The position numbers were made by a program, and so were the translations under genes. The notes under the pieces are model-generated. The model did not search any database and had not been told where the DNA came from. It was given only the letters and a program-made list of their open reading frames with translations. From an uncultured Thermoanaerobaculia bacterium (GTDB lineage Bacteria > Acidobacteriota > Thermoanaerobaculia > Thermoanaerobaculales > Sulfomarinibacteraceae), in contig CAYPBC010000001.1 of NCBI GenBank assembly GCA_964408845.1, forward strand, positions 1-38,206: a stretch of DNA of 38,206 bases. Reading direction: 5' to 3'. Shown piece after piece: positions 162 through 34,110 of this stretch. The number at the start of each line of letters is the position of its first letter. The stretch's first letter is position 1.

Positions 162-1265
162 TCAATCGAGGTAGCGGCCGGAGTTTGGCTTGTGGCCCGA
201 GGAATCCCCGTCAGCGCCGGTCTGGTGCTCGATGACAGGCAGTTTCCGGTCAGGATCAAGCTCCAGGAGCTCACGGCGATGATCCGCGAGAGGATTGGCG
301 CCCAGGACGCGGCCGGAGCTTTCCAGAAACGAATACATGTCGGTGCATCCGCAGCGGGTCATTGGGCAGGGCACTGGACCGGCAAAGAGCCGCGGTAGGC
401 TCTCGTCGAAAAAAGACCCGGCGACCTCGGAATGACACCCCACATGGATACGGCCTGCAGCATCCATCTGGTAGGCGATGCCGGGGAAGAGGCAACGCCG
501 GCCCCGCGGCGATTTTTTTAATGCCCGGTATTGATAGTCGACCTCCTTCGGGAGGTAGCGGCGGAGGAGAGCCAGCTCGTCGGCATCATAGTAGCCCGAG
601 GGCCCCCAGAGCGGGTTGGGGTACAGAGCGATACCCTGTTCGCGGAACAGCTTCCACCTGCGTTCAAAGTCGCTCATGTTCTCGCGGGTGAATACATAGT
701 TGACCTGTCCAATATTGAATCCCTCGGCCCGGAGAACCTCGAGCCGGCGAAGGAACCCAGACTCATCGATCTGACTCGGGTGGAATGTACACATCAGGAT
801 CAACTTCCGGCGGTCGACCTGCCGAAAGGGAAGTGGATCCCAGCGAGCGTTCGTGTCGATGCGGATGGACTCCACTCCGGCCATCGTTGTGAGTGCCACA
901 AGAAGCTTCGGCATCGACTGCCGGTCGAGCATGGGTTCGCCACCGGTGAGAACCAGAGTTGCCCTCTGATCCGAGAAGTGATTCCCAAACGCCTCGATCC
1001 AACGAGCGACCGAGTAGTTGTCGAAAGCGTGCGCCGTGAAGTGCTCGCCGAGCGGCGCATCCCGCTTATGGTTCTGGGGGCAATATGGGCAGCTGTAGTT
1101 GCACCAGCGCGTCAGCTGCCAGCGCAACAGCACCAGCCGTCTCTCCTGGGCGGGCTTCCAGATTGCCAGGAGATCCCGAAACTTCGCGCGATCCCGCCAG
1201 CTCATCCGGCGATATGGCGAGAACAGGTTCCAGAATCTCCGGCGGGTCCTCAACTGGTCAAGCAT
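162..1265 (-). CDS. Radical SAM enzyme with Cys-rich C-terminal (SPASM/twitch-like) region
   Basis: ORF 162..1727 trimmed to ATG 1265 (MLDQLRTRRRF...), because the upstream part only mirrors the neighbouring gene region. CX3CX2C motif read directly (RWCNYSCPYCPQ). GGEP-type SAM motif (LTGGEPML). C-terminal Cys cluster PCPMTRCGC. Alternative start ATG 1205. Protein ends ...SGRYLD. Confidence 0.8.
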   Translation of the reverse strand: MLDQLRTRRRFWNLFSPYRRMSWRDRAKFRDLLAIWKPAQERRLVLLRWQLTRWCNYSCPYCPQNHKRDAPLGEHFTAHAFDNYSVARWIEAFGNHFSDQRATLVLTGGEPMLDRQSMPKLLVALTTMAGVESIRIDTNARWDPLPFRQVDRRKLILMCTFHPSQIDESGFLRRLEVLRAEGFNIGQVNYVFTRENMSDFERRWKLFREQGIALYPNPLWGPSGYYDADELALLRRYLPKEVDYQYRALKKSPRGRRCLFPGIAYQMDAAGRIHVGCHSEVAGSFFDESLPRLFAGPVPCPMTRCGCTDMYSFLESSGRVLGANPLADHRRELLELDPDRKLPVIEHQTGADGDSSGHKPNSGRYLD

Positions 1266-1496
1266 GCACTGGATGATACAAGATCGCCGGCTTCCGTGGG
1301 GGGATCGAAGGTTTTGAACTTGTCCGACGGCGGTCGCCCGCGGAATGCCGCCAACAGGGGAACGGCCCGAAAACGCGAGAGTTCTGGTGACAATCGATCG
1401 ACTGAACGGCCTGTCTTGGACCCCCGAGAGAGTGGGTGTGCTACGTTGGCCGCGGGTCGGCGTGCCCTCATCCCTCAAGAGGAGATCCAACCGACA

Positions 1497-2897
1497 ATGA
1501 AAACCACAAACCGACTGGCGCTGTTTCTTTTCCTCGTTCCGGTCGTAGGTGGTGTCTGTGTCATGATCGGCTGCGGAGCTAGCGACGAGGCGGCTTTCGA
1601 CGACAAGCTGAACCTGATCATCATCTCGCTCGACACGCTGCGGGCCGACCACCTTGGATCGTATGGGTACGAGAGGAATACAAGTCCGAATATCGACCGA
1701 TTCGCAGGAGAATCGACCCTCTTTCAAAACTCGTTTTCAAACTCCAACTGGACACTCCCATCCCACATGTCCTTGATGACCTCGCTGTATCAGACCGAAC
1801 ACAATGTCGTCGGCAAGACAAACAAGCTGTCAACCAGGATTCCGACGCTCGCCGAGGTGTTGAAGCGCGAGGGATACCATACCGCGGCGTTCACTTCCGG
1901 TTACTTCGTTGACCGGAAGTTTGGATTCGACCGGGGATTCGACGTCTACCACCAGTCGTATGACTTTCAGCGTCAGAATAGTGGCCAGGGCTGGCGCCTC
2001 GAGCATCTTGAAAAAGACCTCTTCTCGTGGCTGGATACCCATAGTCAAGAGGATTTCTTTCTCTTTGTCCACAGCTACGATGTCCACGAACCGTTTATTG
2101 CGCACCAATACCTTGAGGAGTTTAGCCCGGATTACAGCGGATGGGCGACCAATCTCCACAACATGGAGAGGTTCAAAGCGAGCCCCGAGTACAAGGCTTA
2201 CGTGGAAAGCGAAGGAGTGAGATACTTCAACATCAATCTCTATTACCAAAAGGTCATCAACGCGGGTCTGATCGAACTTACCGATGCTGACCGCGACCAC
2301 CTGGTGGCCCTGTATGACAACGAGGTGCGGTTTGCAGACGAGTACTTCGGCCGCCTCCGGCAGAAGCTGGAAAGTCTCGGCCTGTGGGAGAACACGGTCA
2401 TCGTGTTGTGGTCTGATCATGGTGAGGAGCTCTTCGAGCGCGGTGGGATTCGGCATGGAGGACAGCAGCTGCACGACGAGGTACTCCGGGTACCGTTGGT
2501 GATTCGGATCCCGGGGGTTGAGCCGAAGGTCACGCCCGAACTCGCCCAGGGAATCGACATCGCACCGACCGCTCTCGATATTCTAGGTATCGCACCCGAG
2601 ACCTCGTTTGCCGGAACGTCGCTCTTCGACGAAGGCGCTTCGAACGCATTTGTGATCGCAGAAGGGAAAGACTGTGAGTGCATCCGGACAGATAAGTGGA
2701 AGCTCAGCGCCCTCAGGGATGGCCGCATTTTCGAGCTCTTCGATCTGGAAGACGATCCGGATGAGAACTCCAATCTGGTGATGAGCCGTTCCGACCAGGT
2801 GACAGAGCTGACCTCCCTGTTGAACGAGGCACTCAACCGGATGGTGACAGACGAACAGATGCGGCAACAGCTCGAAGCCCTCGGTTACCTCGATTGA
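1497..2897 (+). CDS. Sulfatase-family (alkaline phosphatase superfamily) lipoprotein, Thr-nucleophile type
   Basis: ORF 531..2897 trimmed to ATG 1497, with GAGGAG about 12 nt upstream. N-terminus MKTTNRLALFLFLVPVVGGVCVMIGC is a signal peptide with a lipobox-like IGC. Family hallmarks: IIISLDTLRADHLG, WTLPSHMSLMTSLY (Thr codon 1752-1754), VLWSDHGEEL, LRVPLVIRIPG, FELFDLEDDPDENSNL. Ends QLEALGYLD. Confidence 0.85.
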   Translation: MKTTNRLALFLFLVPVVGGVCVMIGCGASDEAAFDDKLNLIIISLDTLRADHLGSYGYERNTSPNIDRFAGESTLFQNSFSNSNWTLPSHMSLMTSLYQTEHNVVGKTNKLSTRIPTLAEVLKREGYHTAAFTSGYFVDRKFGFDRGFDVYHQSYDFQRQNSGQGWRLEHLEKDLFSWLDTHSQEDFFLFVHSYDVHEPFIAHQYLEEFSPDYSGWATNLHNMERFKASPEYKAYVESEGVRYFNINLYYQKVINAGLIELTDADRDHLVALYDNEVRFADEYFGRLRQKLESLGLWENTVIVLWSDHGEELFERGGIRHGGQQLHDEVLRVPLVIRIPGVEPKVTPELAQGIDIAPTALDILGIAPETSFAGTSLFDEGASNAFVIAEGKDCECIRTDKWKLSALRDGRIFELFDLEDDPDENSNLVMSRSDQVTELTSLLNEALNRMVTDEQMRQQLEALGYLD

Positions 2898-2980
2898 GTT
2901 GCGTAGGTGTCAGGACCCAAGTTCAGAATTTCAGGGTTGAAAGATGAGTGTCCGATAGATCCGCGTGGTTGCCTGAGGTG

Positions 2981-3847
2981 ATGATGAAACTGCTTGATCT
3001 CCTACAGCCGTCTCATTCCAGAGCGAACAAGAACATCGTGGTTTTTGGTGCCGGCCGCAGCGGGACGACATGGCTTTCCCAGATTATCGCCAGCGCCGGC
3101 CTCGAGTTCGTGTTCGAGCCTCTCAACCCGGGCGAGGTCCCGGAGGCCAAGGTCTTGAAACCGCTTCCCCTTTATTGCCGAAAGCATGATGCCTTCGAGT
3201 GGGAGGAACTGTTCACGAGGATGATAAACGGTGAGGTTCGGAATTCCTGGACCATTCGCTTGAACCCGGGCGCGGAACGGAAGGTAATCAAGTTCATCCG
3301 CGCCAACCTGCTGATTGAGTGGATCCTTCACAACTTCGACGTCCATCCAGTCTTCATCATCCGAAACCCCCTGGCCGTCGTGGCGTCGATCAAGGAACAG
3401 GGATGGGAGTTGGAGGCCGGGTGGGTTCAAGATGTCCTCACCTCACCACGCCTCAAGCAGCCGTTCTTCTCGAGGATTCCGGAGGTGTCGGAGTGGGTGT
3501 CTCGGGATCTCACTGATGCCGAGGTCAAGGCGCTCTACTGGTGCATTCATAATTACGTTCCGAGGAGACTGGGCTGTTTTAGCAAGCTCCATCTCGTGCG
3601 GTACGAGGAGCTGTGTCAGGATCCCGACAAGGTGTTCGGGACGCTGGCACCGAAGATCGGCATTGAGATGACAGAGAGCATACGGTCTGCGTTCACCAAG
3701 CCGTCGTTGATGCGCGGCAAGCGGCAGGGAAGCAAGGGTTACGACCCGAGAAGAGCCTGGAGAGACGTGCTCTCCCCGGAGGATGTCGAGGCGGTCAAGC
3801 GGATCGTCGGGGCCTTCGGGCTCGAGAGGTACATCGACGACGCCTGA
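2981..3847 (+). CDS. PAPS-dependent sulfotransferase family protein
   Basis: 5-prime PSB loop FGAGRSGTTWLSQ and 3-prime PB-like IIRNPLAVVASI read by eye. The ORF track starts at GTG 2948; ATG 2981 (MMKLLDL) is preferred because GAGG lies just upstream. No signal peptide. Confidence 0.8.
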   Translation: MMKLLDLLQPSHSRANKNIVVFGAGRSGTTWLSQIIASAGLEFVFEPLNPGEVPEAKVLKPLPLYCRKHDAFEWEELFTRMINGEVRNSWTIRLNPGAERKVIKFIRANLLIEWILHNFDVHPVFIIRNPLAVVASIKEQGWELEAGWVQDVLTSPRLKQPFFSRIPEVSEWVSRDLTDAEVKALYWCIHNYVPRRLGCFSKLHLVRYEELCQDPDKVFGTLAPKIGIEMTESIRSAFTKPSLMRGKRQGSKGYDPRRAWRDVLSPEDVEAVKRIVGAFGLERYIDDA

Positions 3848-3869: not shown

Positions 3870-4721
3870 TCACCACCCGTCGTCGGACTCGTAACCCAAT
3901 TCGATGAGAAGATCTCCGGCCAGTTCCTTGACGATATCCTTGGCCTCGTTGGTCGTGAGGTGGTTCCTCCAGTCTCCAACGACGCCCTTGCGGAAAAGAG
4001 GGCGGACGGTTTTCGCCCGCTCCAGGTGCTCGGCGAGAGGCCTCGGTTCGTCGGCCCCCGGCGATTGAACCAGGTCCGCGTCGGTCAGGCCGAGACCGCT
4101 GAACTCGAGAACCCGGCGCACGGTGGCCTCGAAATCCTCGATCAGGTGCTCGTACGTCAGGCGCAGATGCGGGATCTTCGCTCTTCGCAAGAGCTTTTCG
4201 CACTCCAGGGTCGCCCGGCAGTTCTTCACCGCATGCCACAGGTACGACCAGTGCCGCAGGTACTCACTATCGCCGATTTGCTCGTTTGGCTCGCTGTCCC
4301 CGAGCACCTGCTGGTGGAAGAACTGGAGCGATACGAAAATGTCTCGGGGGTCCCTGTACATGATGACGATACGGGAATCTCGAAAGACATCGTAGTACCG
4401 AGGGAAGGCGAGGACGTTGGATGGTGACTTGTCGATGAGCATCTTGAGATCGGGGTGTCGCTCCCGCTGGAGACGGTAGAGCTCTCTCAGCTTGTCGAGC
4501 GGGCTCAGCGTGGCGTTCTCTCGGACTCGAAGAAACGCGGGGTCGTCGGCCGTCCTCCGATTCCACTGCTTCTCGAGCGGGAACTCGAGAAAGAAAATGA
4601 AATCGAGCTCGCCTGGGGGGGCGAGGAAGGGCCGGACCGACAGCGCCTTGGCCAGCCAGGTGCTGCCGCATTTTCCCGGATTGAGTATGAACAGGTAATC
4701 GCAGAGGGGATCGGTCGCCAT
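3870..4721 (-). CDS. PAPS-dependent sulfotransferase family protein (second, divergent paralog)
   Basis: PSB loop LNPGKCGSTWLAKAL, DKSPSN, and 3-prime PB motif YRDPRDIFVS. Convergent with the first sulfotransferase across a 22-nt gap. No signal peptide. Confidence 0.8.
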   Translation of the reverse strand: MATDPLCDYLFILNPGKCGSTWLAKALSVRPFLAPPGELDFIFFLEFPLEKQWNRRTADDPAFLRVRENATLSPLDKLRELYRLQRERHPDLKMLIDKSPSNVLAFPRYYDVFRDSRIVIMYRDPRDIFVSLQFFHQQVLGDSEPNEQIGDSEYLRHWSYLWHAVKNCRATLECEKLLRRAKIPHLRLTYEHLIEDFEATVRRVLEFSGLGLTDADLVQSPGADEPRPLAEHLERAKTVRPLFRKGVVGDWRNHLTTNEAKDIVKELAGDLLIELGYESDDGW

Positions 4722-4830: not shown

Positions 4831-5430
4831 TTAATCGAGGTAGTCCAGCGTCCGGAGCCGCTCCTTAGTGTCCTCGGAAAGCTCCACTTCATTTTTCTGT
4901 GTTGGCGATGAAGAAGCCTGTGGAGTAGCCGGCCTCGCTGAGGCGTTGTGCGAAGCTGGGGCGATCAGCGGGATAGGGGATCTCGAAACACCCATCGCGG
5001 TGCACCCGCGACGAGAACGAACCTTGCCGGTCAACAACTCTGATCCCCAGATCACTCCGACTCCTCCTCCCTCCAGAGATGCTGCTTTGCAGGGACCGAA
5101 CTCCAAGGGGATATTAGCACCCGAGTACGTTGCTCGATTCTCAAGATCCGCTGCTGGGAGCCTGCAGCTGCCTTCTGCCAGTGTGCCCGTCATAATTGGT
5201 GTGGAGTATCGAGGGCGCCGAGGCGCCTTCCTGCCTGTGCTTCGCGACCTAGGAATACTCTTATGTATGTTGAGGAAGCGAAGTGCAGGCAGGGTGGATG
5301 CACCGGCGACCAAATACCACTCCAGTGGTGCCGGAGTACACTACGCTCGGCGACGTCAGCAGCCATTGACACCAAACCCGGAGAGAGGGACTTCGACGTG
5401 AAAGGCGACGGCAATGTCAGCCTGGGAATG
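4831..5430 (-). pseudogene. Decayed sulfatase-family paralog (internal deletion plus frame change)
   Basis: Two frames on the minus strand match the intact paralog at 31057..34110. The tail PTQKNEVELSEDTKERLRTLDYLD-stop (4831-4902) matches AEVELSEETIEQLRTLGYLD-stop in 15/19 positions. An N-proximal piece PADRPSFAQRLSEAGYSTGFFIAN-TEK-stop (about 4889-4972, other frame) matches PRDHPSFARHLGDAGYHTGFFTAN in 16/24. The roughly 800 codons normally between these pieces are missing. Weaker remnants (SPGLVSMAADVAERSVL) lie further upstream. Confidence 0.6.
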
Positions 5431-5438
5431 AAATCACG

Positions 5439-6842
5439 ATGAAAAGGAAGAACCTCGTCCTCATCACGGTCGACGCGCTTCGCCGCGACGCTCTCGGCTG
5501 CACGGGCTCGGCGGGCGCCTCCACGCCGCACCTGGACTCGCTCGCCGAGCGGGGAATCCTCTTCGATCAGGTGATTTCGAACGGGCCCCGGACCCAAGCA
5601 TCCTTCCCCTCGATCATGTGCTCACTCTACCCCCTGGTGGCCGGCGAGCGAAAGGGCCTGCCGGCGGGCGCCGCCACCCTGGCGGAGGCGACCCGCCTCG
5701 CCGGGTACGCGACGGCCGGCTTCAACCCCTCCAACCCCTTCCTCACCCGCGAGACCGGGTACGACAGGGGCTTCGACCTGTTCATCGACTTCTGGGATGT
5801 GCACGACCGCAGGGGGTCACGGGTGAGGAAGGGACCCTGGGCTGCAGCGAAGAAGTCTCTCCATGACGCCATGGGTCGGCGAAACCTCGGCTTCCTCATG
5901 CTCTTTCAGGCCGCGGTACTGGCCGAGGGCGGTCAGTACCTCACGGGGAATCTCATCACCGAGCAGGCGCTGGCCTGGCTCGCCGACCAGAGAGCTCCCT
6001 TCTTTCTCTGGCTGCACTACATGGATGTCCACTACCCCTATCAACCCCTGCCCGGCGAGCGGACGTGGCGCGACCGGCTGTCCTATCTCCGGGGCATGGC
6101 GGGGATGTTGGGGGGACGCCGGCAACCGGCAGCGAGCGCCTTGCGCCGCCTGTACGACTGCCGGGTCGAGCTTGTCGACGGGTTCATCGGGGATTTCCTC
6201 GAGGGACTCGGAGGGTTCGGTTTCGAGAGCGACACCGTAGTCGCCGTCACCTCCGACCACGGGGAGCAGCTCGGCGAGCGCGGCCGCTGGGCGCACGGAC
6301 CCGATCTCCACGACGAGTTGCTCCGGGTCCCGCTAATCCTCCGGGATCCTGATTTGGAGTCATCCCGAGTCATCCGCGAGCAGGTGGAGCTGCTCGGCCT
6401 GGCGCCCACCCTCTTGGATCTTCTCCAGATCGAGGCTCCAGAGACCTTCCTGGGATCGAGCTTTCTGCCCCTGCTGCGCGGGGACTCAGCCGCCGGTGCC
6501 GCCCACGTCTTCAGCGAGGCGATGCACGGCGGCGCACGGCTGAGCCGGACCGGGGTTCCGGACACTCACCGCATCGTCTCCTGCCGCGGGCGCAGCTGGA
6601 AGTACATCCGGGACGACGAGGGTCCGAGCGAGGAGCTTTATGACCTCGAACGCGACCCGGGCGAGCGCACCAACCTCGTCGGCGAGCAGCCGCAGAAGGC
6701 CGGCGAGTTTCGCGGTTTGGTGGAGGACCATGATTCCCTGGTGGTTCGCGAGGCCGCCAGGTACGAGCAGGACGGGGAACGGCCGATGACGACCGACGAC
6801 GAGGAGATGCGGAGGCGCCTCGCGGCTCTAGGGTACCTGTAA
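5439..6842 (+). CDS. Sulfatase-family (alkaline phosphatase superfamily) protein, no signal peptide
   Basis: Starts directly with the catalytic core MKRKNLVLITVDALRRDALG. Nucleophile segment PRTQASFPSIMCSLYP (Thr codon 5592-5594). VAVTSDHGEQLGE, LLRVPLILRDP, ELYDLERDPGERTNLV. Ends RRLAALGYL. Confidence 0.85.
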   Translation: MKRKNLVLITVDALRRDALGCTGSAGASTPHLDSLAERGILFDQVISNGPRTQASFPSIMCSLYPLVAGERKGLPAGAATLAEATRLAGYATAGFNPSNPFLTRETGYDRGFDLFIDFWDVHDRRGSRVRKGPWAAAKKSLHDAMGRRNLGFLMLFQAAVLAEGGQYLTGNLITEQALAWLADQRAPFFLWLHYMDVHYPYQPLPGERTWRDRLSYLRGMAGMLGGRRQPAASALRRLYDCRVELVDGFIGDFLEGLGGFGFESDTVVAVTSDHGEQLGERGRWAHGPDLHDELLRVPLILRDPDLESSRVIREQVELLGLAPTLLDLLQIEAPETFLGSSFLPLLRGDSAAGAAHVFSEAMHGGARLSRTGVPDTHRIVSCRGRSWKYIRDDEGPSEELYDLERDPGERTNLVGEQPQKAGEFRGLVEDHDSLVVREAARYEQDGERPMTTDDEEMRRRLAALGYL

Positions 6843-6889: not shown

Positions 6890-7960
6890 ATGACGAGCGA
6901 AATCCAGCCTCTCTCAGAATGGTTTCCGGTGGACGATCCGGCGCCGTGGGTGATCGCGGGGCCATGCAGTGCCGAGTCAAGGCAGCAGGTGTTGTCCACC
7001 GCCCGCCAGATTGCCGAAGTCCCCCACGTCAGGGTATTTCGGGCCGGTCTTTGGAAGCCTCGAACACGCCCGGACTCTTTTCAGGGGGTGGGGGAAGCCG
7101 GGCTGGGTTGGCTGCAGGCGGTCAAAGAGGAGACATCGCTGAAGGTCACCACCGAAGTGGCTTGCGCCAAGCATGTGGAGCTGTGTCTGGAGGGTGGCAT
7201 AGACGTTCTCTGGGTTGGAGCGAGAACGACGGTGAACCCGTTCCTTGTACAGGAGATCGCTAACGCGTTGAGGGGCTGTGACCTGCCGGTGATGGTCAAG
7301 AATCCTGTCAGCTCGGAGCTGGGCCTGTGGCTCGGAGCAATAGAGCGGATGTACCAGGCCGGAATAAGGAAGATCGTCGCCATCCACCGGGGGTTTTCGG
7401 TTTACCACGAGACCCAATACCGGAACCAACCAAACTGGCAAATCCCCATTGAACTGAAACGCCGGCTCCCGAATCTCCCTCTGGTCTGTGACCCGAGCCA
7501 TATCGCCGGTGATCGGAAGCTCGTGGGACAAGTTGCTCAAATGGCTCTGGATCTGGGAATTTATGGTCTCATGATCGAGACTCACTGTGATCCTGATCGA
7601 GCCCTGAGCGACGCGAAACAACAGATTACCCCTGAATCGCTGTCGACGTTGCTGCGGACTTTGCGGGTGAGAAAGGCCGGAACCGGTGATCGGCCGCCCG
7701 ACGCCGACATCGCGCGGATTCGATCGTTGATTGATGAAGTGGACCGCCGGATTATTCTCGATTTAGCGGAGCGCCTGAGTCTGGTTGAGGATATTGGCCG
7801 GATCAAGCGCCAGCATCACATTCCGGTATTGCAACTCCACCGGTGGGAAGACCTTCTGGAAGACCACTTGGCGCGCGCCAGGGAAATGGGCCTTGACTCC
7901 CAGTTCATCAAGGCGGTGTTCGAACTTATCCATGCCAAGGCGGTCGAAATGCAGCTTTAA
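6890..7960 (+). CDS. Bifunctional 3-deoxy-7-phosphoheptulonate (DAHP) synthase type I-beta / chorismate mutase
   Basis: N-terminal VIAGPCSAES...VFRAGLWKPRTRPDSFQGVG...CDPSH pattern of the DAHPS/KDO8PS I-beta family. The C-terminal ~90 aa (IARIRSLIDEVDRRIILDLAERLSLVEDIGRIKRQHHIPVLQLHRWEDLL) look like an AroQ-type chorismate mutase. Confidence 0.85.
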   Translation: MTSEIQPLSEWFPVDDPAPWVIAGPCSAESRQQVLSTARQIAEVPHVRVFRAGLWKPRTRPDSFQGVGEAGLGWLQAVKEETSLKVTTEVACAKHVELCLEGGIDVLWVGARTTVNPFLVQEIANALRGCDLPVMVKNPVSSELGLWLGAIERMYQAGIRKIVAIHRGFSVYHETQYRNQPNWQIPIELKRRLPNLPLVCDPSHIAGDRKLVGQVAQMALDLGIYGLMIETHCDPDRALSDAKQQITPESLSTLLRTLRVRKAGTGDRPPDADIARIRSLIDEVDRRIILDLAERLSLVEDIGRIKRQHHIPVLQLHRWEDLLEDHLARAREMGLDSQFIKAVFELIHAKAVEMQL

Positions 7961-8143
7961 CCTGCATATCTCACCAGCTGCCGGCTTGCGGCCGGCGATG
8001 CACCGCCTCCAGCGTCGTTTTCTCGCCTCGGGGTGCTCGCGACGTACCGTCAAGTACGCCTCCGCGCCCCTCGGGTCGAAAACACCACTGGACACGGCAC
8101 CTCGCCACCCTCGCCACGGCACCCGGTGAGATATGCAGGTTAA
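7957..8143. mobile_element. 187-bp palindromic MITE-like element, copy B (complete)
   Basis: Perfect 19-nt terminal inverted repeats: TTAACCTGCATATCTCACC (7957-7975) and GGTGAGATATGCAGGTTAA (8125-8143). The interior arms are also imperfectly complementary around the centre CGTAC-cgtcaa-GTACG (8043-8058). No ORF with transposase features. The outer TTAA on each side could be a target-site duplication. Confidence 0.65.
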
Positions 8144-16904: not shown

Positions 16905-17858
16905 TCACCCGTTGTCGCTCGCGCGAAGAGCCCTGACGGCTTCGGGCAGGGAAGCCACGCGCCGCAGGAAGAGAACGAGCATTCCCGCCGGCACCTCCAG
17001 GAGGCTGAACCCCGCCACCCGCCGGTGACGGAGGAGCCGCTGCCAATCCAGCAGCGTCCGGCCAAGGGTCGCCGCGATCACGCCGGGGACGCCGGCGCGA
17101 ACGAACGCCGCATACCGTATCGAAGGCTCGATCTTCCGCGCTTCGACGAAGCTCCTGCCATAGCGTTTCGCCCTGTCCAGCAGATCCTTCATCTCCACCG
17201 ACGGCCGGTGGACGACGGCGACTCCAGGATCGTAGATCAGCTTCGCGCCCTTCCGGCGCAGCGTCTCGGCGAAGAGGGTATCCCCGCCGGCGCGGGCGAG
17301 ACGCGGATCGAATCGCACCCCACCCAGAACCGTCCGCGTCAGGCCCATGTTGCAGGTTGGGATGGCACGAACCTCCTTGAGTTGAAGACCCTGGTACTCA
17401 CCGAAGTCGGCAATACCGGTCAAACGCTGCCAGAAGCTCCCGCGGTGCAGCACCCTGCCGCCGATCACGGTGTTGGGCTCGTCGATCAGCCGCTCGGTCA
17501 TCCGCGCCAGCCAGTCCGGGAACGCTGTACAGTCCGAGTCAATGAAGGCGATGATCTCGCCCGTGCTCTCCTCGATCCCGCGGTTCCGCGACACATCAGC
17601 GCCCTCGTTGGACTTGCTGATCACCCTCATGCCCGGAAACTCATTTCGGAGCACATCGGCCGTGCCGTCGGTGCTGCCGTCATCCACCACCACGACCTCG
17701 GTCGTCGCCGCCGGGTAGTCCTGCTCCGCGAGTGACTGCAGGCAACCGACGAGGTTGTCGAGATCGTCGTAGGTAACAATGACCACGCTTACGCGAGGAT
17801 GAGCCGGCCCCCGTTCGCCGTCCCCCATGCGCGCATGCGCCTGGCGATGCTCGTTCAT
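16905..17858 (-). CDS. GT2-family glycosyltransferase
   Basis: VSVVIVTYDDLDNLVGCLQSLAEQDYP...EVVVVDDGSTDGT and FIDSDC (DXD). The start overlaps the upstream stop as ATGA. Confidence 0.85.
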   Translation of the reverse strand: MNEHRQAHARMGDGERGPAHPRVSVVIVTYDDLDNLVGCLQSLAEQDYPAATTEVVVVDDGSTDGTADVLRNEFPGMRVISKSNEGADVSRNRGIEESTGEIIAFIDSDCTAFPDWLARMTERLIDEPNTVIGGRVLHRGSFWQRLTGIADFGEYQGLQLKEVRAIPTCNMGLTRTVLGGVRFDPRLARAGGDTLFAETLRRKGAKLIYDPGVAVVHRPSVEMKDLLDRAKRYGRSFVEARKIEPSIRYAAFVRAGVPGVIAATLGRTLLDWQRLLRHRRVAGFSLLEVPAGMLVLFLRRVASLPEAVRALRASDNG

Positions 17859-19204
17859 CGCTCGGCCCGTAAGTTCGAATTGCCGCCGGCCATATCAGGG
17901 TTGGGCGAAATGCTGAGGAAGTCCTCGGCGATGAGGCTGCCGGCGAGCGCCGCACTCTCCTCGACCTCAGGGAGAACCTCCTGCAGATGCTCGCGGATCT
18001 TCGCCTCATCTCGGGATAACGCCTCGAACCGATTCGTGAGCGTCTCCAGCGAGAGGTCCTCGATGGGAACCACGAAGTCTTCGAGACCGAGAGCCGCCAT
18101 GATGCCCCGGGTTTTTGGCTGGTAGGCGATAGCTACGGTCGGCACTCCGAGCGACAGGGCAAAGATGTTGGAGTGCATGCGCGTGCCAACGAAATAATCC
18201 ATCCGGCCGCACTGCCACTTGATCTCCTCCGGGCCCAGCTCGTCCTCCACAATCCGGACCCGGTCGTGGCGAGCCACCGAGGCGACCACGCTGCGGGCCG
18301 CCTCCCGGTCGTCGTCCTCGCCCTCTGCGTACGTGACCTGGGGCAGGAAAACGACCTCGGCACCCCATTCCTCGACCAGCCAGTCCACGAATGACGCCAT
18401 GGTTCGCTCGTACTCCACCTGCTGGTCGGGATTCCGAAACCACTTCCTGACCGTCATACCGATCGTGGGCTTGCCTCTCGTGCCAACGATTCCGAGGCCT
18501 CCGTCGGGCGGGCACGCCTCGAGAAGGAAGGCGGCATCGGTCGCGTTCTGAACCGGTGTCGGCAGATGCCAGCCATCCAGCAGCCGCCTCGACACACCCT
18601 CTCGAACCTCCACCAAGCGCACCCTGGAGAGCGCCTGGCGCACGATCCATGCCTGCAACGTGCCGGCGAAGGGGCCGATGGACTGGGCGTAGAGAGAGAC
18701 CGGCTTGCCGAGCAGTACTCCGAAGAAGAAGCTGTAGACGGTGATCAGCAGCACCACGTTGCCGTGGATCGCCGAGGTCGTGTAGAGGTAACCCCCGCCG
18801 GCCGCAACCACCAGATCCGCACGGGCGTAGGCCCGCATCAGCTCGCGAAGAGGCCAGGGGAGCGAAAGGTCGAGCCCCCCCAGCCGCCAGGCGATGGCCC
18901 ACAGCAGGCTCAAAGGCAGCAACACGACGAGGAAGTACAGGGAATTGACACTCGAGCTGCTCGAAAACCTGTTCTTGAGCGAGTGAAAGGACGGAAGCAC
19001 CTGCACGGGATAGCGCGCCGTGTCGGCTGGGTAGTCGGCCGACGAGACCCGGATCTCCGCCTCCCGAAAAACCTCGGTGCGGCGCAGACTCTCCGCCATG
19101 CCGAGGATGATTGCTGCATCCCCCCGATTGCTAGCGCTGTACGCATTGGTGATGAGAATCTCCGTCATTGTCCCAGTCGAGTTTAGCAGTGGGTACCACC
19201 CCAC
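17855..19204 (-). CDS. Polysaccharide pyruvyl transferase family protein (WcaK/CsaB-like)
   Basis: ILITNAYSASNRGDAAIILG near the N-terminus and DYFVGTRMHSNIFALSLGVPTVAIAYQPKTRG near the C-terminus. The ORF track begins at GTG 19204; ATG 19168 (MTEILITN) is an equally good start. Confidence 0.75.
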   Translation of the reverse strand: MGWYPLLNSTGTMTEILITNAYSASNRGDAAIILGMAESLRRTEVFREAEIRVSSADYPADTARYPVQVLPSFHSLKNRFSSSSSVNSLYFLVVLLPLSLLWAIAWRLGGLDLSLPWPLRELMRAYARADLVVAAGGGYLYTTSAIHGNVVLLITVYSFFFGVLLGKPVSLYAQSIGPFAGTLQAWIVRQALSRVRLVEVREGVSRRLLDGWHLPTPVQNATDAAFLLEACPPDGGLGIVGTRGKPTIGMTVRKWFRNPDQQVEYERTMASFVDWLVEEWGAEVVFLPQVTYAEGEDDDREAARSVVASVARHDRVRIVEDELGPEEIKWQCGRMDYFVGTRMHSNIFALSLGVPTVAIAYQPKTRGIMAALGLEDFVVPIEDLSLETLTNRFEALSRDEAKIREHLQEVLPEVEESAALAGSLIAEDFLSISPNPDMAGGNSNLRAER

Positions 19205-19288: not shown

Positions 19289-21730
19289 ATGCAGATCTCA
19301 AGAACAATTTGCCTCGGCGTCGGAGCGGCTCTCCTGCTCGCCTCAGCGGGATGTGCGAGTAGCTCCTCGAAGAAACCCTACGTTGGGCCCACGAAGAGCG
19401 CCTTGGTCACCGCAGATTTGCCCCCACTCGTGTACGACTGGCCGCTGGATGTCCAAAGGTATTGGGTTGGACCGGACTTTTGGGCCAACCGGGTCCAGGA
19501 TTGGCAGGTAACCGGCGGCCGGCTCGTCTGTCTTGCAACTAGCCGGCGCCAGCCGCTGCGCACGGCACATTGCATCACCCGGGAAATCGCACCAGGAGCG
19601 GAGAGCTTTCACATCTCCGTGCGCCTCGGCCTGGTGGCCGAGAACAACCACCGGGGATGGAGCGGCATCATCTTCGGCGTCGGAGGTGGAGAGCTCGACC
19701 ACAAACGCGCCGCGATGGTCCACCACAATCCCGGCCCCGGCGGGGGCATCCTGGCAGCCTACAAGCTCATCGGAGGGGTCGAGTTCTTCGACAATAACGA
19801 AGACACACGGACGTTCTACAGAGCCTCCTCGCTCGAGGCAGACGGCGACGCGGCTCAACACCAGCGCACGGCGGACGAGGATGTGCGGCTCGACCTGCGC
19901 GGGACGCCTGCAGGTGATGGCCTCTTTGATCTCAGGTTGTCGGCGACCGATCTCATAACGGGACGCCTGATCGATGAAAAGACCCTTCGCGGGGTTCCTG
20001 AAGCGGACATTCTCGGGGGAATCGGTCTCTTTGCCCACCCGAAGTCAGAGGGAGAGGCCGCACAGTTCTGGTTCGACGAGTTCAGAGCCGGCGGCGCCAA
20101 GGTCGCGGTCCACCCGGAAAGGGCCTTCGGTCCGGTCGCAAGCACCCTGTACAGCCTCGCCGACAAAACCCTCAAGCTCTCCGCTCAATTTGTCTTGCTG
20201 GGCGAGGGGGAACCTCTGGAAGCCACCCTGCAGAAAAGACTCAGCGGGACTGACCACACGTGGCAGGAAGTGGCGTCCGCGCAGATCGTCATTCCGGGAT
20301 GGACCGCCCTGTTTCGCTGCGAGGATTGGGACGATTCGAGGGCATGGGACTTCCGCGTGGTGTATCGTGATGGCGAGGGCGCAACCCATAGATACTCCGG
20401 GGTGATTGGCAAACCTCCCACCGATCAGGATGAGGTGGTGATGGCGGCCTACACCGGCATGATGATCATGGGTATTCCCGCGGACTTCAGTTGGGGGAGC
20501 AAGGGCTATGGACTCCCCGAAAGCCGGTGGATCAAGGAGAACCTCTGGTTCCCACACGAGGATATCGTCAGGAACACCCTGGCCTTGGGCGCCGACATCC
20601 TCTTCTTCACCGGCGACCAGATCTACGATTCGGGGAACCCCACGGCAGGCGACTCCTCTTCACTCATCTTGGACTACATGAACCGCTGGTACTACTGGTG
20701 CTGGGCCTTCGGTGAGCTGACGCGGCAGATGCCGGCAATTCTTCAGGTGGACGACCACGACGTCTACCAAAGCAACATCTGGGGTTGGGGCGGAAAGCGC
20801 AACACAGCCCGCGATGTGGCGCTCGGCGGATACCTGCAGGGGCCCGCGTTCGTGAACATGGTCCAAAGGGTGCAATGTGGGCACGACCCTGACCCGTACG
20901 ATCCGACCCCCGTCGAGCAGGGGATCACCGTCTACTACACGGGTTTCGAATATGGGGGGGTTGGATTCGCGGTGATCGAGGACCGCAAGTTCAAGACGCC
21001 ACCGGGGTATGACGGAGACCGGCCAGTCTTGCTCGGTGATCGACAGCAGCGGTTTTTGGCCGAGTGGGCCGAGGACTGGGAAAACCAGGACCTCAAGGTA
21101 TGCGTGAGCCAGACCAACTTTGGGTCCATTCTGACTTACGCGGGCGGTGGTCTCGGCGGGAGTAGGGATACTAATGCGGCGCCGGTCGAAGGGCGTCGTC
21201 GCGCATTGAAGTCCCTGCGCGTGGCCGGGGCCGTCGTTGTTGCCGGCGATACCCATCTGGCCACGCTTGTGCGGGCGGGGATCGACACGCCCACCGACGG
21301 CGTCTACATGTTCACTGTTCCGCCCGTCGCCAACAAGTTCCGGCGGTGGTTCGACCCCGCGTGGCCGGGCGAGAACCACCCCGACGGTGCACCGAACTAC
21401 GTCGGCGACTTCACAGACAGATTCGGGAATCCGATGCGCGTGCTTGCGGTGGCAAATCCGACGGTCTCCCAGGCCGAGGTCGAGTCCTGGAATGCCGAGC
21501 GGGGGCGCAGGGACTCGTTCGGGGTGATCGGGCGGGAGTTCGTTCGCGACGGATTCGGGATCGTGAGACTCAACAAGCGGGAACGGACCGTGCGCTTCGA
21601 GTGCTGGCCGTGGAACGCAGATATCACCGAGGGCGACGCTGCCCAGTTCGAAGGCTGGCCGGTAACGATCAGAGTCGAGGCGCCGTTGAAGAAAAGACAA
21701 CCGCGCAACCAAAACCGAGAGTCGGATTAG
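19289..21730 (+). CDS. Lipoprotein with PhoD-like metallophosphatase domain
   Basis: Signal peptide plus lipobox LLLASAGC. GGAGGA upstream. C-terminal half has FFTGDQIYDSG, LQVDDHDVYQSNIWG, VIEDRKFK and VVAGDTHLATLV, which resemble PhoD-type phosphodiesterase or phosphatase motifs. The N-terminal ~380 aa are unassigned. Confidence 0.55.
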   Translation: MQISRTICLGVGAALLLASAGCASSSSKKPYVGPTKSALVTADLPPLVYDWPLDVQRYWVGPDFWANRVQDWQVTGGRLVCLATSRRQPLRTAHCITREIAPGAESFHISVRLGLVAENNHRGWSGIIFGVGGGELDHKRAAMVHHNPGPGGGILAAYKLIGGVEFFDNNEDTRTFYRASSLEADGDAAQHQRTADEDVRLDLRGTPAGDGLFDLRLSATDLITGRLIDEKTLRGVPEADILGGIGLFAHPKSEGEAAQFWFDEFRAGGAKVAVHPERAFGPVASTLYSLADKTLKLSAQFVLLGEGEPLEATLQKRLSGTDHTWQEVASAQIVIPGWTALFRCEDWDDSRAWDFRVVYRDGEGATHRYSGVIGKPPTDQDEVVMAAYTGMMIMGIPADFSWGSKGYGLPESRWIKENLWFPHEDIVRNTLALGADILFFTGDQIYDSGNPTAGDSSSLILDYMNRWYYWCWAFGELTRQMPAILQVDDHDVYQSNIWGWGGKRNTARDVALGGYLQGPAFVNMVQRVQCGHDPDPYDPTPVEQGITVYYTGFEYGGVGFAVIEDRKFKTPPGYDGDRPVLLGDRQQRFLAEWAEDWENQDLKVCVSQTNFGSILTYAGGGLGGSRDTNAAPVEGRRRALKSLRVAGAVVVAGDTHLATLVRAGIDTPTDGVYMFTVPPVANKFRRWFDPAWPGENHPDGAPNYVGDFTDRFGNPMRVLAVANPTVSQAEVESWNAERGRRDSFGVIGREFVRDGFGIVRLNKRERTVRFECWPWNADITEGDAAQFEGWPVTIRVEAPLKKRQPRNQNRESD

Positions 21731-31056: not shown

Positions 31057-34000
31057 TCAGTCGAGGTAGCCGAGGGTTCGAAGCTGCTCGATGGTCTCCT
31101 CCGACAGCTCGACCTCGGCCGCTTTGTCTCGCTGGCCCCAGGAGTCGCTGGAGGCCAGCAGCGCTGCGAGATGCCCATGGAGCCGGGTGAACACCTCCGG
31201 GCGGGTGTGAACGAGGTTTCGTCTCTGCTCCGGGTCCTCGTCGAGATCCACCAGAACGCACTGCGAGGGATCGGAGCGTTTCAGATCTAGGAAGTCGGTC
31301 GTGCAGAGGGGAAGATCCGCAACGCGGTGGTTCCCAAGGTCCGCTTTGACTACCTCTCTCCCCTCGTCGTTCCCGGTTGTGACCACAAAGGGTCCGCGGC
31401 TGTTCGAGTAAAGGCTGGGCCACCTCTCTGCCAGGCGAAGCTTGAGCGAGAGGCCCACGGTCCCCGGCTCGAGCTCGAGGCGAATCGTCTCCACAACCGC
31501 CTCCCCCATCTCCCAGGCGTGGGTCGGCCGCTGCTCGCCGCCGACAAACCACCACAGCCACCGCTCGGTCCGCTCCCCCGAGGTCGGGACCATCGAGGCG
31601 GCGAGCTTGCCCGAGAAGGTGTGGGAGGAGGCAGCCTCGGCCTCCCAGTACAGCGTCAGGTAGACGCAGGAATCGCCACGGCACAGATCGAAGCCGGTGA
31701 GCGACACCAGATCGCCGAACCGGGTCAGTCTGGCATGCACCGGAGTCAACAGCGCCAGATCGGTGGCAGCATCTCGCTCACCGAGATCGGTGAGCTCGGT
31801 GAGAGCAGAGGGGTGGAATGGAGTCTTTTGTACGCAGTTTCGGAGAAGCTCCCGTCGCTCGCCCTCGGTCCGGGCGATCTGAGCCAGGAGGAAGTCCAGA
31901 TGTCCCTGGCTGGGAAAGCGTTTCGCCAGCGCTTCAAGCGCCGGGCGCTCGCTGGGCCCGGCGTGGAAACCGGGCGGCAGCCGCAAACTCTCGATCCCGA
32001 GCTGGTCACGTTTGTGGGCCAGAAGACTCTCGGACCGGGACCCGCAAACCTCGAGGGTGGTCATGGGAACCGGATCCACGGCCGTGACGACTCGCTTCCA
32101 CCAGAAGAGCTTCGAGTGGTCCAGCAGGCCGACCTGCACCCGGTGGGCTCCTCGGCACGACGAGGCCGGCACGGTCCACCAGAACGAGTCCTCGAAGTCG
32201 AGTGATCCGTGGGAGAAGGTCGTGTCCTCGATCTTGGAGTCCTCGACGAGAGGCTGAGGCTCGGCCCCTTTCTCCAGGACACGACGAAAAAAGGTCCTGG
32301 CCTCGCTGATCGTCACCCGGTTCTGCGGGTCGACCAGCTCGACGAGGATGCCGACCTCCTTACCGACATTGCGGTGGGCGCGCCAGTGGAGAGTGATGTA
32401 GACCGCGTCGCCGGGACAGGCCACCGGAGGCTCTGCCGTGACCGCCAGGATCTCCAGAACATCACTCAACCGCCGGGGGTTCTCCACGGGCGCGGTCAGC
32501 ACTCCGAGCCAGCCGGTCTCCGGAGGTCCGGACCCTGTGCCGGTCCATCCGGCACCCTCCACGATCAGTCGCTTGGCTGCCCTCTCCTCGGAGACCGTTA
32601 TCTCACCTTCGAACTCCCCACCAGAGAAGGTGCCGAGGGAGACCACCGACGTCGCGGTCGTCCGGACGCGGAGAGCCAGCCGTCCCGTCTCGTCGTCGGT
32701 GCGCAAGGTTCCGGAAAATCGAAGCTTCGACCCGGGGGTCACCAGGCGGCGGTGGAGGGCGAAATTCTCCAAAACCACACCGTCGCAGATCTTAAGGCGC
32801 CGACGCAGGGCGCCCGGAGGCACCGGCAGTGGCGTCCCGGCGACGGTGGAGGCCGCCGACTCCGCCGATCGGACCTCCATGAGGTGTCCACTGCCGAAGC
32901 GGGCCCCACCGTTGTAAATCAACCGCCATTGACCCGACGTCAGCGCCCAAGCGCTCTCGGACCTTTCCAGGCCTTCCTGGCTTACCACCACCCTCTCCGG
33001 AGACCCCTCTCCAAGGAGGGACTCGTTCATCATCCCAAAACGCACTGGCCCGCCCGCCAGCTCGAGAATCGTGGGGCCGAGATCGAGATGTGAAACGGGT
33101 CGCGTCATCGTGACCGGACCGGTTGACTCGGTGTCGTGGAGGATGAGCGGTACGTGCAGGATCTCGTCGCTCAGGATCATCCCGTGATCGCACATCAGTC
33201 CGTGTTCACCCAAGCCCTCGCCGTGATCGCTAGTCACGATGAAAACCGTGCGACGGCTCCCCCGAATTTCCAGCCATCTCGCGAAGAAGCCTGCAGCCAG
33301 AGAATCGGCGTAGGCGATATTCGCCTCGTACCGCTGTTGGTAATCGAGGAGATCGACTCCGAGCCCCACCTTCGCCTGATACCAGGGGATCCTCCCGAGA
33401 ACACCGGCCGCCAGGGAGACCCTCGCCCCATCGCGGTCGTGGTGGGCGAGGTGGCCGGCGACCGGCATCGGCCGGCCTTTTGCCTGCCGAAGGAACCGAT
33501 CCGGCGCCTTATATGGTCCGTGGGGCGGCCAGTAATGGATATAGACGAAGGCAGGCCGGGGGCCGCCCAGGGACCTCACCCAGGCCATGCAGTCGTCGGT
33601 CAAACGAGGGCCGAAATCACTGTCCTTGGCGGCCTCAATGGACACATGATCAAAGTGCTCCTCCATGCCGAAACCTTCGCCGATGGCAGGGTTCGCCGTG
33701 AAGAAGCCGGTGTGATAGCCGGCATCACCGAGGTGACGCGCAAAGCTGGGGTGATCGCGCGGGAAGGCCTTGTTGATTCGCCATCCGCGGTGTTCGAGGG
33801 GCGGAAGCCCGGTGAGAATGCTGGTGACTGACGGTCGGGTCCAGGTGGCTGCCGAATGGCAGCGGTTGAACAGGGTGGACCGCGCGGCGAGATCGGAGAG
33901 GAACGGCGCCGTGTCCCACTGATGCCCGTAGAACGGCAGCGACCGCGCGCGCAGGGAGTCGAGAACGAGGAGCACGATGTCGGGACGACCGTCACCGGGA

Positions 34001-34110
34001 GGAAGATCTCCGAATCTCCCACACCCGGCCAGGCCGAGGCCCAGCGCGGAGACACCCAGACCTTGGAGGAAGCCGCGACGGGAGAACTCTGTGCCAGGAT
34101 TACCTTTCAC
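31057..34110 (-). CDS. Large Tat-exported lipoprotein: sulfatase-family (Thr-nucleophile) catalytic domain with ~540-aa nested insertion
   Basis: GTG start with GGAG upstream. SRRGFLQGLGVSALGLGLAGC is a twin-arginine motif plus lipobox. IVLLVLDSLRARSL, ATWTRPSVTSILTGL (Thr codon 33838-33840), VTSDHGEGLGEHG, LHVPLILHD. The canonical end LVDLDEDPEQRRNLV...EQLRTLGYLD is separated from the core by an insertion at about 31278-32898. Confidence 0.8.
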   Translation of the reverse strand: MKGNPGTEFSRRGFLQGLGVSALGLGLAGCGRFGDLPPGDGRPDIVLLVLDSLRARSLPFYGHQWDTAPFLSDLAARSTLFNRCHSAATWTRPSVTSILTGLPPLEHRGWRINKAFPRDHPSFARHLGDAGYHTGFFTANPAIGEGFGMEEHFDHVSIEAAKDSDFGPRLTDDCMAWVRSLGGPRPAFVYIHYWPPHGPYKAPDRFLRQAKGRPMPVAGHLAHHDRDGARVSLAAGVLGRIPWYQAKVGLGVDLLDYQQRYEANIAYADSLAAGFFARWLEIRGSRRTVFIVTSDHGEGLGEHGLMCDHGMILSDEILHVPLILHDTESTGPVTMTRPVSHLDLGPTILELAGGPVRFGMMNESLLGEGSPERVVVSQEGLERSESAWALTSGQWRLIYNGGARFGSGHLMEVRSAESAASTVAGTPLPVPPGALRRRLKICDGVVLENFALHRRLVTPGSKLRFSGTLRTDDETGRLALRVRTTATSVVSLGTFSGGEFEGEITVSEERAAKRLIVEGAGWTGTGSGPPETGWLGVLTAPVENPRRLSDVLEILAVTAEPPVACPGDAVYITLHWRAHRNVGKEVGILVELVDPQNRVTISEARTFFRRVLEKGAEPQPLVEDSKIEDTTFSHGSLDFEDSFWWTVPASSCRGAHRVQVGLLDHSKLFWWKRVVTAVDPVPMTTLEVCGSRSESLLAHKRDQLGIESLRLPPGFHAGPSERPALEALAKRFPSQGHLDFLLAQIARTEGERRELLRNCVQKTPFHPSALTELTDLGERDAATDLALLTPVHARLTRFGDLVSLTGFDLCRGDSCVYLTLYWEAEAASSHTFSGKLAASMVPTSGERTERWLWWFVGGEQRPTHAWEMGEAVVETIRLELEPGTVGLSLKLRLAERWPSLYSNSRGPFVVTTGNDEGREVVKADLGNHRVADLPLCTTDFLDLKRSDPSQCVLVDLDEDPEQRRNLVHTRPEVFTRLHGHLAALLASSDSWGQRDKAAEVELSEETIEQLRTLGYLD

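Follow-up and report, generated by a model that had tools for sequence, protein, structure and literature searches.

The window analyzed here, a stretch of 38,206 nucleotides (positions 1 to 38,206 of contig CAYPBC010000001.1) from the metagenome-assembled genome (MAG) of an uncultured Thermoanaerobaculia bacterium (GCA_964408845.1), harbors three genes that match the Sulfatase family PF00884, at 1497..2897, 5439..6842 and 31057..34110 (paralogs 1, 2 and 3, respectively). All three encode a Thr in the alignment column that holds the formylglycine-forming Cys or Ser of sulfatases, and the radical SAM enzyme encoded divergently from paralog 1 is not an anaerobic sulfatase-maturating enzyme (anSME). 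From the pattern of conserved residues we consider it probable, at roughly 0.6, that the three genes encode metal-dependent enzymes with the S1-sulfatase fold whose active site serves phosphoryl transfer via a phospho-Thr and which act on glycan-associated phosphoesters. The features on which this argument turns are the following.

162..1265, minus strand: radical SAM enzyme, STM4011-like (Pfam Radical_SAM; best NCBIfam match NF038073)
1266..1496, no strand: divergent intergenic spacer of 231 bp between the radical SAM gene and paralog 1 (starts at 1265 on the minus strand and 1497 on the plus strand)
1497..2897, plus strand: paralog 1, 466-aa exported lipoprotein, Thr-type sulfatase fold (PF00884, E = 1.3e-51)
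5439..6842, plus strand: paralog 2, 467-aa cytoplasmic Thr-type sulfatase-fold protein (PF00884, E = 4.6e-44)
31057..34110, minus strand: paralog 3, 1017-aa Tat (twin-arginine)-signal lipoprotein, Thr-type (PF00884, E = 3.9e-38)

Threonine in the nucleophile column of the PF00884 paralogs

An earlier reading made from the DNA letters (the sequence-only reading) had placed Thr where type I sulfatases carry Cys or Ser in all three paralogs; the segments that it quoted are found letter for letter, and our alignments agree with it. These segments are WTLPSHMSLMTSLY in paralog 1, with Thr86 encoded by codon 1752-1754, RTQASFPSIMCSLYP in paralog 2 (Thr52, codon 5592-5594) and WTRPSVTSILTGL in paralog 3 (Thr91, codon 33838-33840, minus strand). 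They align as T-L-P-S-H, T-Q-A-S-F and T-R-P-S-V, respectively, such that the motif Arg of sulfatases is replaced by His, Phe or Val. In a phmmer search against the PDB, Thr86 falls opposite the Cys of 6hr5 (C-A-A-S-R) and the Ser of 7p24 and 5g2v (S-G-P-S-R), with ‘nwTlpsHmsl’ of paralog 1 aligned with ‘piCaasRasl’ of the former and ‘lSgpsRac’ of the latter two, and His90 falls opposite the motif Arg. The counterpart of Thr86 in 4uph is the first position of the x-S-P-A-R motif, a residue that is printed as Ala and is taken to be the modified formylglycine. A MAFFT alignment that includes E. coli AslA (S-S-P-T-R), the canonical sulfatase of the MAG itself (C-S-P-A-R) and E. coli EptA brings the Thr of all three paralogs into one column with the AslA Ser, the Cys of the MAG sulfatase and the EptA Thr; the Thr really does occupy the formylglycine column.

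This residue is found in 119 of the 119 best homologs, the consensus being W-T-L-P-S-H-x-S-x-x-T-S-L-Y-P-x-x-H-G, and in a more distant set of 133 representatives (50% identity clustering; 153 domains) the column holds Thr in 148, Ser in four, Ala in one and Cys in none. The MAG (2.6 Mb, 70% complete) contains 13 PF00884 matches, at least 10 of which carry Thr, one C-S-P-A-R and one Ser. As far as these alignments go, the Thr is a family trait and not a local oddity, and because it occupies the nucleophile column, they support the conclusion that the three paralogs cannot be formylglycine sulfatases. Two tandem sulfatase-like domains, mostly with Thr in both, are present in 19 of the 133 best family representatives (P0235-P0245, P0254, P0264, P0267, P0268 and others; 900-1550 aa).

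At E <= 1e-30 the Thr-type family comprises 23,949 clusters (50% identity), and score calibration leads us to infer that most of these ~24,000 clusters are Thr-type. Thr-bearing PF00884 non-sulfatases are already published: SulfAtlas (2016) recorded Thr in 30 of the 59 PF00884 Pfam seed sequences and flagged the Thr-bearing members (PMC5066984), and the NCBI label ‘sulfatase-like hydrolase/transferase’ reflects known members of this kind. The clade of the window paralogs is soluble, keeps the sulfatase C-terminal subdomain and has a conserved tail.

Nine residues, D46, T86, H197, Y273, D274, D281, D307, H308 and H320 in paralog 1 numbering, are invariant in 74 sequences. D46, T86, H197, D307-H308 and H320 are the predicted catalytic residues of paralog 1, with D12, T52, H198, D273-H274 and H286 as their equivalents in paralog 2, and the alignment retains the Asp, the Thr, the His197-equivalent, the Asp-His pair and the His320-equivalent in all three paralogs. 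In the MAFFT alignment, T86, H197, D307-H308 and H320 align with the Thr, the ‘SHGP’ His, the ‘SDHGE’ motif and the ‘YLHG’ His of E. coli EptA. The MCR-1 counterparts are Thr285, His395, Asp465/His466 and His478; Thr285 is present as phospho-Thr in the crystal structure, and the His395 and His478 positions (MCR-1/LptA) hold a second zinc in LptA (PMC5031297). Sulfatases bind sulfate through the motif Arg, the Lys and His of GKWH and a late Lys; in the Thr-type paralogs these residues are missing or replaced, the late Lys by His, and the canonical sulfatase of the MAG keeps C-S-P-A-R, GKWH (GKWHLNG) and GKK (GKKLQLWEGG).

Considered over the whole protein, phmmer E-values against the PDB reach 4e-23 for sulfatases, compared with 3e-9 for 4uop, an LtaS-type primase, and 3e-8 for ENPP4. 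The AlphaFold model of paralog 1 (predicted local distance difference test score, pLDDT, of 92.6) contains the two-domain alpha/beta sulfatase fold, and its top 50 Foldseek neighbors are all S1 sulfatases or phosphonate monoester hydrolases (PMH), with template modeling (TM) scores of 0.62-0.71. In a maximum-likelihood tree, the formylglycine clade (AslA, YdeN, YidJ and the C-S-P-A-R protein of the MAG, C234) has 99/99 support and contains none of the Thr-type proteins, and the Ept transferase clade, supported at 100/100 on a long branch, excludes the paralogs. Outside these two clades, the soluble Thr-type proteins lie in a bush that the tree does not resolve, in which paralog 1 belongs to a supported subclade with its 45-52% homologs; the tree placements of paralogs 2 and 3, OpgB, YejM and STM4013 are unreliable owing to long branches.

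The likeness to the motif of nucleotide pyrophosphatases/phosphodiesterases (NPP) that the sequence-only reading proposed is borne out locally but does not extend further. When the 33-residue motif is searched alone, ENPP4 is the only solved enzyme recovered (a segment of 20 letters against TLPSHMSLMTSLYQTEHNVV, E = 0.52), a resemblance and not a statistic, but whole-protein sequence, fold and tree place the proteins nearest the sulfatases and PMH, and not NPP, LtaS or EptA. The designed repeat protein Tako8, also returned by the motif-only PDB search, was discarded as an artefact of summed repeats. A PF01663 match was likewise considered as a sign of NPP kinship and rejected: paralog 1 scores 45.1 bits (gathering threshold 23), but the canonical C-S-P-A-R sulfatase scores alike at 44.3 bits, so the match is not diagnostic.

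The radical SAM enzyme and its genomic neighborhoods

The radical SAM enzyme at 162..1265 carries its CxxxCxxC motif at Cys55/59/62 (codons 1080-1103), and alignment of 42 homologs reveals five conserved C-terminal Cys at 258, 277, 300, 305 and 307 (numbered 257-306 in homolog alignment A1, the query of which began one residue later), an arrangement that suggests a twitch-like auxiliary cluster. Its Pfam match covers the Radical_SAM core only, and no Pfam match to the SPASM domain (PF13186) is found in it. The best NCBIfam match is NF038073 (STM4011) at 84.9 bits, below the cut-off of 200, and the anSME model TIGR03942 (cut-off 349 bits) is not among its NCBIfam matches at E <= 0.01. TIGR03942 likewise has no match at E <= 0.001 in the other four radical SAM enzymes of the window, and its best match in the whole MAG, on another contig, scores 26.9 bits; the MAG thus has no anSME above cut-off, and it has two formylglycine-generating enzyme (FGE)-family genes. 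A BLASTP comparison with E. coli AslB yields E = 0.026 and an alignment of only 85 residues, in the CxxxCxxC region. The AlphaFold model (pLDDT 90.8) has as Foldseek neighbors viperin-like proteins, MoaA, the twitch dehydrogenases SpeY and BtrN, EpeE and PqqE, with modest TM scores of 0.3-0.55, and anSMEs are absent from its top 50 structural neighbors.

The missing SPASM domain, the lack of a TIGR03942 match, the AslB E-value and the structural neighbors all agree with the earlier statement that this enzyme is probably not a sulfatase maturase. The accompanying expectation, that the pair would be annotated automatically as an anSME plus a sulfatase, holds for one partner only: the sulfatase-like homologs do go under the names ‘arylsulfatase A-like enzyme’, ‘sulfatase’ or ‘sulfatase-like hydrolase/transferase’ in their sources, but the radical SAM homologs appear as ‘radical SAM protein’, ‘organic radical activating enzyme’ or ‘hypothetical protein’, with a single ‘sulfatase maturation enzyme AslB’. 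As a member of an STM4011-like family, the window enzyme would tailor the glycan independently, and it probably acts on a small molecule or sugar.

Genomic neighborhoods indicate that the pairing of this gene with paralog 1 is mostly not meaningful and that the two are likely unrelated neighbors. Among 57 loci, a clear sulfatase-like gene lies within ~10 kb of the radical SAM relatives only in L005 (a fusion), in L024 and in the window itself, and a conserved adjacency of radical SAM and sulfatase-like genes, considered as a candidate, is not seen in 54 of the 57. The 73%-identical radical SAM ortholog (L001) has no sulfatase-like neighbor. The syntenic locus L067, which holds a 77% ortholog of paralog 1, keeps both paralogs beside the flippase, as well as the sulfotransferases and PhoD, and has a pyruvyl-transferase/glycosyltransferase fusion in place of the radical SAM gene of the window. 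A pyruvyl transferase is instead the recurrent partner, being encoded within 3 kb of the radical SAM gene, often adjacent to it, in 19 of 57 loci (L003, L009, L017, L024, L032, L037, L042 and L050 among them) versus 0 of 80 control loci, which points to a functional link between the radical SAM family and ketal-pyruvate decoration of glycans.

In a few other lineages, relatives of the radical SAM enzyme are nonetheless fused to, or found in a cassette with, Thr-type hydrolases, and for this reason the reading of unrelated neighbors is less than certain. The 966-aa protein P0227 (L005, 11404-14304) is a fusion that begins with a sulfatase-like domain of the Thr type (T-T-A-S-H), which has 31% identity with paralog 1 (E = 2e-34), and finishes with an STM4011-like radical SAM domain; the latter scores 100 bits against NF038073 and can be aligned with the window enzyme over the full length (E = 3e-12). 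Three further fusion clusters (P0229, P0230 and P0232) are 57-78% identical to P0227, and the fusions span 966-1007 aa. In a Gemmataceae MAG (L051, 6137-10897), a complete cassette has the gene order STM4013 (354.9 bits), an unknown 510-aa protein, STM4012 (461.9) and STM4011 (284.8), and its STM4013 hydrolase displays the Thr-type site in minimal form, as T-L-A-A-H and ADHGE...GH. The fusion proteins have no signal peptide and are found in a glycan cluster, adjoining a PAPS-reductase-like gene. No NF006067 or NF038075 member above cut-off occurs in the window or the MAG, and a search for a true STM4013 in the MAG returned only weak cross-matches to Thr-type paralogs.

For the wider Thr-type family, conserved neighbors were sought and set aside, as no family recurs in more than five of 80 metagenome loci; distant orthologs (47-48% identical; L068 and L069) are found in unrelated contexts without sulfotransferases. 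In the window itself, the ends of the radical SAM gene (162-179) and of paralog 1 (2880-2897) have their last 12 nucleotides (TACCTCGATTGA) in common, with the radical SAM protein ending ...GRYLD*. Since the radical SAM orthologs lack a GRYLD-like tail, this identity is to be read as chance or as a local recombination scar.

Gene content of the window and architecture of the paralogs

By family profile matches, the 38-kb window is a glycan biosynthesis cluster that encodes glycosyltransferases, a Wzx-type flippase, an ABC-2 exporter, a pyruvyl transferase and a PhoD-like protein, together with two sulfotransferases, two methyltransferases and five radical SAM enzymes. A GAGGAG ribosome-binding site precedes the start codon of paralog 1 at 1497. 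Further features are listed below.

2948..3847, plus strand: sulfotransferase-family protein (PF00685 and PF13469)
3870..4721, minus strand: sulfotransferase-family protein (PF13469 at 1.8e-18)
4831..4925, minus strand: C-terminal tail remnant of a fourth paralog (...LSEDTKERLRTLDYLD*), from BLASTP against the end of paralog 3
17855..19204, minus strand: polysaccharide pyruvyl transferase (PF04230 at 2.7e-32), 16 kb from the radical SAM gene
19289..21730, plus strand: PhoD-like protein (PF09423 at 2e-08, 34.2 bits versus a cut-off of 27)

The fourth-paralog remnant consists of the last 31 codons of a 160-aa open reading frame, is 58% identical to the tail of paralog 3 (BLASTP, E = 5e-6) and ends LRTLDYLD. 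A direct repeat of 101 nucleotides, with copies at 13-113 and 8042-8142 that are 83% identical, flanks the initial 8 kb of the window, where the radical SAM gene, two Thr-type paralogs, both sulfotransferase genes and a gene for a DAHP synthase/chorismate mutase are found; the second copy is overlapped by an 80-nucleotide inverted repeat (7957-8143). Because the direct repeat brackets this segment, the local arrangement is perhaps a rearrangement, and the 8-kb module may have been inserted or rearranged.

Paralog 1 reads as having a signal peptide with a lipobox (VMIGC) and paralog 3 as having a twin-arginine signal with a lipobox (RRGFL...LAGC). Upstream of paralog 2 there are only 23 in-frame codons, all hydrophilic, and the start of its ortholog coincides with its own, so a signal peptide is impossible; this agrees with the earlier assignment of 5439..6842 to the cytoplasm. 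Across the family, the N-terminus is hydrophobic in 104 of 120 members, and 31 carry a lipobox. The family hidden Markov model matches paralog 3 in two pieces, residues 20-430 and 918-1023 of the open frame, such that the catalytic core (~20-430) is split from its own C-terminal segment (~918-1017, ...RTLGYLD) by an insert of ~490 aa (residues ~430-918; window 31360-32820) that has no Pfam match.

The three proteins end in closely similar tails, ...EALGYLD in paralog 1, ...AALGYL in paralog 2 and ...RTLGYLD in paralog 3 (window 2877-2897, 6822-6842 and 31057-31077), and an extreme C-terminal L-x-x-[LM]-G-Y-[LIV]-x is present in 95-99 of 120 homologs. In the MAG, L-x-x-[LF]-G-Y-[LVI]-x-COOH is found in every Thr-type paralog and in one Ser-type protein (contigs C7, C11, C22, C26, C144, C197 and C261), but not in the canonical C-S-P-A-R sulfatase. 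This tail is a hallmark of the Thr-type clade. Contig C11 (32-18244) harbors a second glycosyltransferase-rich cluster, with eight glycosyltransferase genes, that ends with a Thr-type paralog (T-P-P-S-H).

Predicted chemistry, alternatives and comparison with known systems

In the mechanism that we favor, the unmodified Thr (T86/T52/T91) would be the nucleophile, acting on a metal bound by Asp46 and Asp307-His308, with H197 and H320 at the positions of the second-zinc residues His395 and His478 in MCR-1/LptA. The metal-activated Thr alkoxide would attack the phosphoester, as in EptA, NPP and alkaline phosphatase; a covalent phospho-Thr intermediate would form, to be resolved by water in a hydrolase or by an acceptor hydroxyl in a transferase. 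The two lipoprotein paralogs would act outside the cytoplasmic membrane and the remaining paralog in the cytoplasm. Because the paralogs sit in a Wzx-type cluster with sulfotransferases and a PhoD-like protein, the likeliest substrates would be phosphoester-linked groups on the glycan or on its lipid-linked or nucleotide-linked precursors, and the position beside the flippase points the same way. Residue identities, conservation, the fold and the placement outside the anSME and formylglycine-sulfatase families are observed; the substrate class, and the distinction between hydrolase and transferase, are what we infer. Phosphonate decoration by a sulfatase-like transferase and a PhpK-like B12 radical SAM enzyme was also considered and dropped, as no PEP mutase was found in the 70%-complete MAG.

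Several observations weigh against this assignment to phosphoester chemistry. Overall sequence and fold are nearer to sulfatases than to any phosphotransferase, and a 74-member family profile has only formylglycine enzymes as its best PDB matches, at ~200 bits, with no solved member of the Thr-type clade found in that search. The metal-ligand roles proposed for the paralogs derive from alignment and not from coordinates. The characterized Thr-type members EptA, MCR-1, LtaS and OpgB are membrane-anchored transferases, and the paralogs lack the membrane domain by which EptA, LtaS and OpgB reach their lipid donor. Two sulfotransferase genes separate paralog 1 from paralog 2, a context that leaves room for a link to sulfate, and the neighborhoods of 80 distant members show no recurrent partner that would hint at a substrate. 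Literature searches for a characterized soluble Thr-type PF00884 enzyme returned none, only the SulfAtlas warning and work on EptA, LtaS and YejM.

One alternative is that the paralogs are sulfate-ester enzymes after all, editing the sulfation introduced by the adjacent sulfotransferases via Thr or a Thr-derived residue. The S1 sulfatase fold and the sulfotransferase arrangement, kept in L067, would fit such a role, but the S1 sulfate-binding residues are all replaced, and by established enzymology a Ser or Thr sulfo-enzyme intermediate has no release by the elimination that formylglycine allows, which SulfAtlas also notes for Thr; for these two reasons a sulfatase role is disfavored. The distant orthologs in contexts without sulfotransferases also speak against it, as does the observation in SulfAtlas that no Thr-bearing PF00884 protein has been demonstrated as a sulfatase (PMC5066984), and we regard sulfate-ester chemistry as very improbable. 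General phosphate scavenging, with the paralogs as analogs of PhoD, PhoX or NPP phosphoesterases that sit in the cluster but do not act on the glycan, would be in keeping with the export of most family members, with the absence of conserved operon partners and with the very large size of the family. This role is unlikely, given that at least four Thr-type paralogs of the MAG are found inside glycosyltransferase-rich clusters, that the paralog pair beside the Wzx flippase is syntenic in L067 and that one paralog is cytoplasmic.

A fairly unlikely proposal makes the radical SAM enzyme and the Thr-type enzyme functional partners in successive steps on one substrate, the pair being a remote version of a recurrent module. 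It draws on P0227 and the three other fusion clusters and on the cassette hydrolase of the Gemmataceae MAG with its same type of site, and it is countered by the rarity of sulfatase-like genes near the radical SAM relatives (L005 and L024 in 57 loci), by the unpaired nearest orthologs of either gene (L001 and L067), by the recurrence of a pyruvyl transferase as the radical SAM neighbor and by scores far under the STM4011 (85 versus 200 bits) and STM4013 (29 versus 250 bits) cut-offs. Barely credible is an extension of this idea, in which cassette, fusion and divergent pair would all represent one module of STM4011-like radical SAM and Thr-type enzymes, and the radical SAM enzyme would be a twitch-type dehydrogenase that oxidizes the Thr to a keto residue, a ‘methyl-formylglycine’ analog of the anSME reaction, or makes an unusual phosphoester substrate; the extension is prompted in part by the presence of SpeY and BtrN among the structural neighbors. 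We see just as little chance that the paralogs are catalytically inert binding or regulatory proteins, as discussed for YejM/PbgA: the His after the nucleophile is lost in paralogs 2 and 3 and the motif Pro in paralog 2, but all three paralogs keep the full set of predicted catalytic residues.

A single biochemical characterization within the clade would annotate tens of thousands of proteins. The practical value is mainly annotation hygiene, as PF00884 matches are routinely counted as sulfatases when sulfated-polysaccharide degradation is assessed in metagenomes, and at least 10 of the 13 such matches in this MAG cannot be formylglycine sulfatases. The clade is large, mislabeled by sources and uncharacterized in the literature searched, which makes it of moderate interest; that the radical SAM enzyme is not an anSME is correct but unsurprising.

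Relative to known systems, the radical SAM enzyme resembles the anSMEs (AslB, AtsB and anSMEcpe) in its CxxxCxxC-bearing radical SAM core and its additional C-terminal cysteines, and differs from them in lacking SPASM, which in anSMEs carries two auxiliary 4Fe-4S clusters, and in having no Cys/Ser-type sulfatase nearby, all three PF00884 genes of the window being Thr-type. The likeness to the STM4013/STM4011 cassette consists of the Thr-type site of STM4013, of STM4011 as the best family for the radical SAM enzyme and of the existence of domain fusions. The window proteins nonetheless score far below the cut-offs of the two models (84.9 versus 200 bits for NF038073; 29.3 and 28 versus 250 bits for NF038075), the HemN-like STM4012 and the STM4014/4015 partners are absent from the window, and STM4013 itself is a minimal domain of 261 aa. 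With the NPP/ENPP enzymes the paralogs share the surroundings of the nucleophile, T-[LF]-P-[SN]-H-x-S-[LI]-x-T-[SG]-L-Y-x-x-x-H, but whole-protein similarity is weak (ENPP4 at 3e-8 versus 4e-23 for sulfatases).

Two other groups offer parallels as well. In EptA, MCR-1, LptA and EptC, the Thr nucleophile, the ‘SDHGE-x-LGE-x-G...HG’ motif and both conserved His align with the paralogs, which differ in lacking the N-terminal transmembrane domain (EptA_B_N), in having Asp and not Glu as the first metal ligand, in carrying an extra sulfatase-type C-terminal subdomain and in not matching PF08019, as EptA does. The S1 sulfatases and PMH (E. coli AslA, the Pseudomonas aeruginosa arylsulfatase, choline sulfatase and Rhizobium/Burkholderia PMH) have the same two-domain fold, provide the best whole-protein matches and have in common with the paralogs the SGSH_C-type C-terminal subdomain, the first Asp, the late Asp and the ‘H-x-P’ His. 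The paralogs differ from these sulfatases in having Thr for the formylglycine-forming Cys/Ser, His, Phe or Val for the motif Arg, D-H for D-N, His for the late Lys and no GKWH. The Thr-type clade joins a sulfatase scaffold with an active site of the phosphotransferase type.

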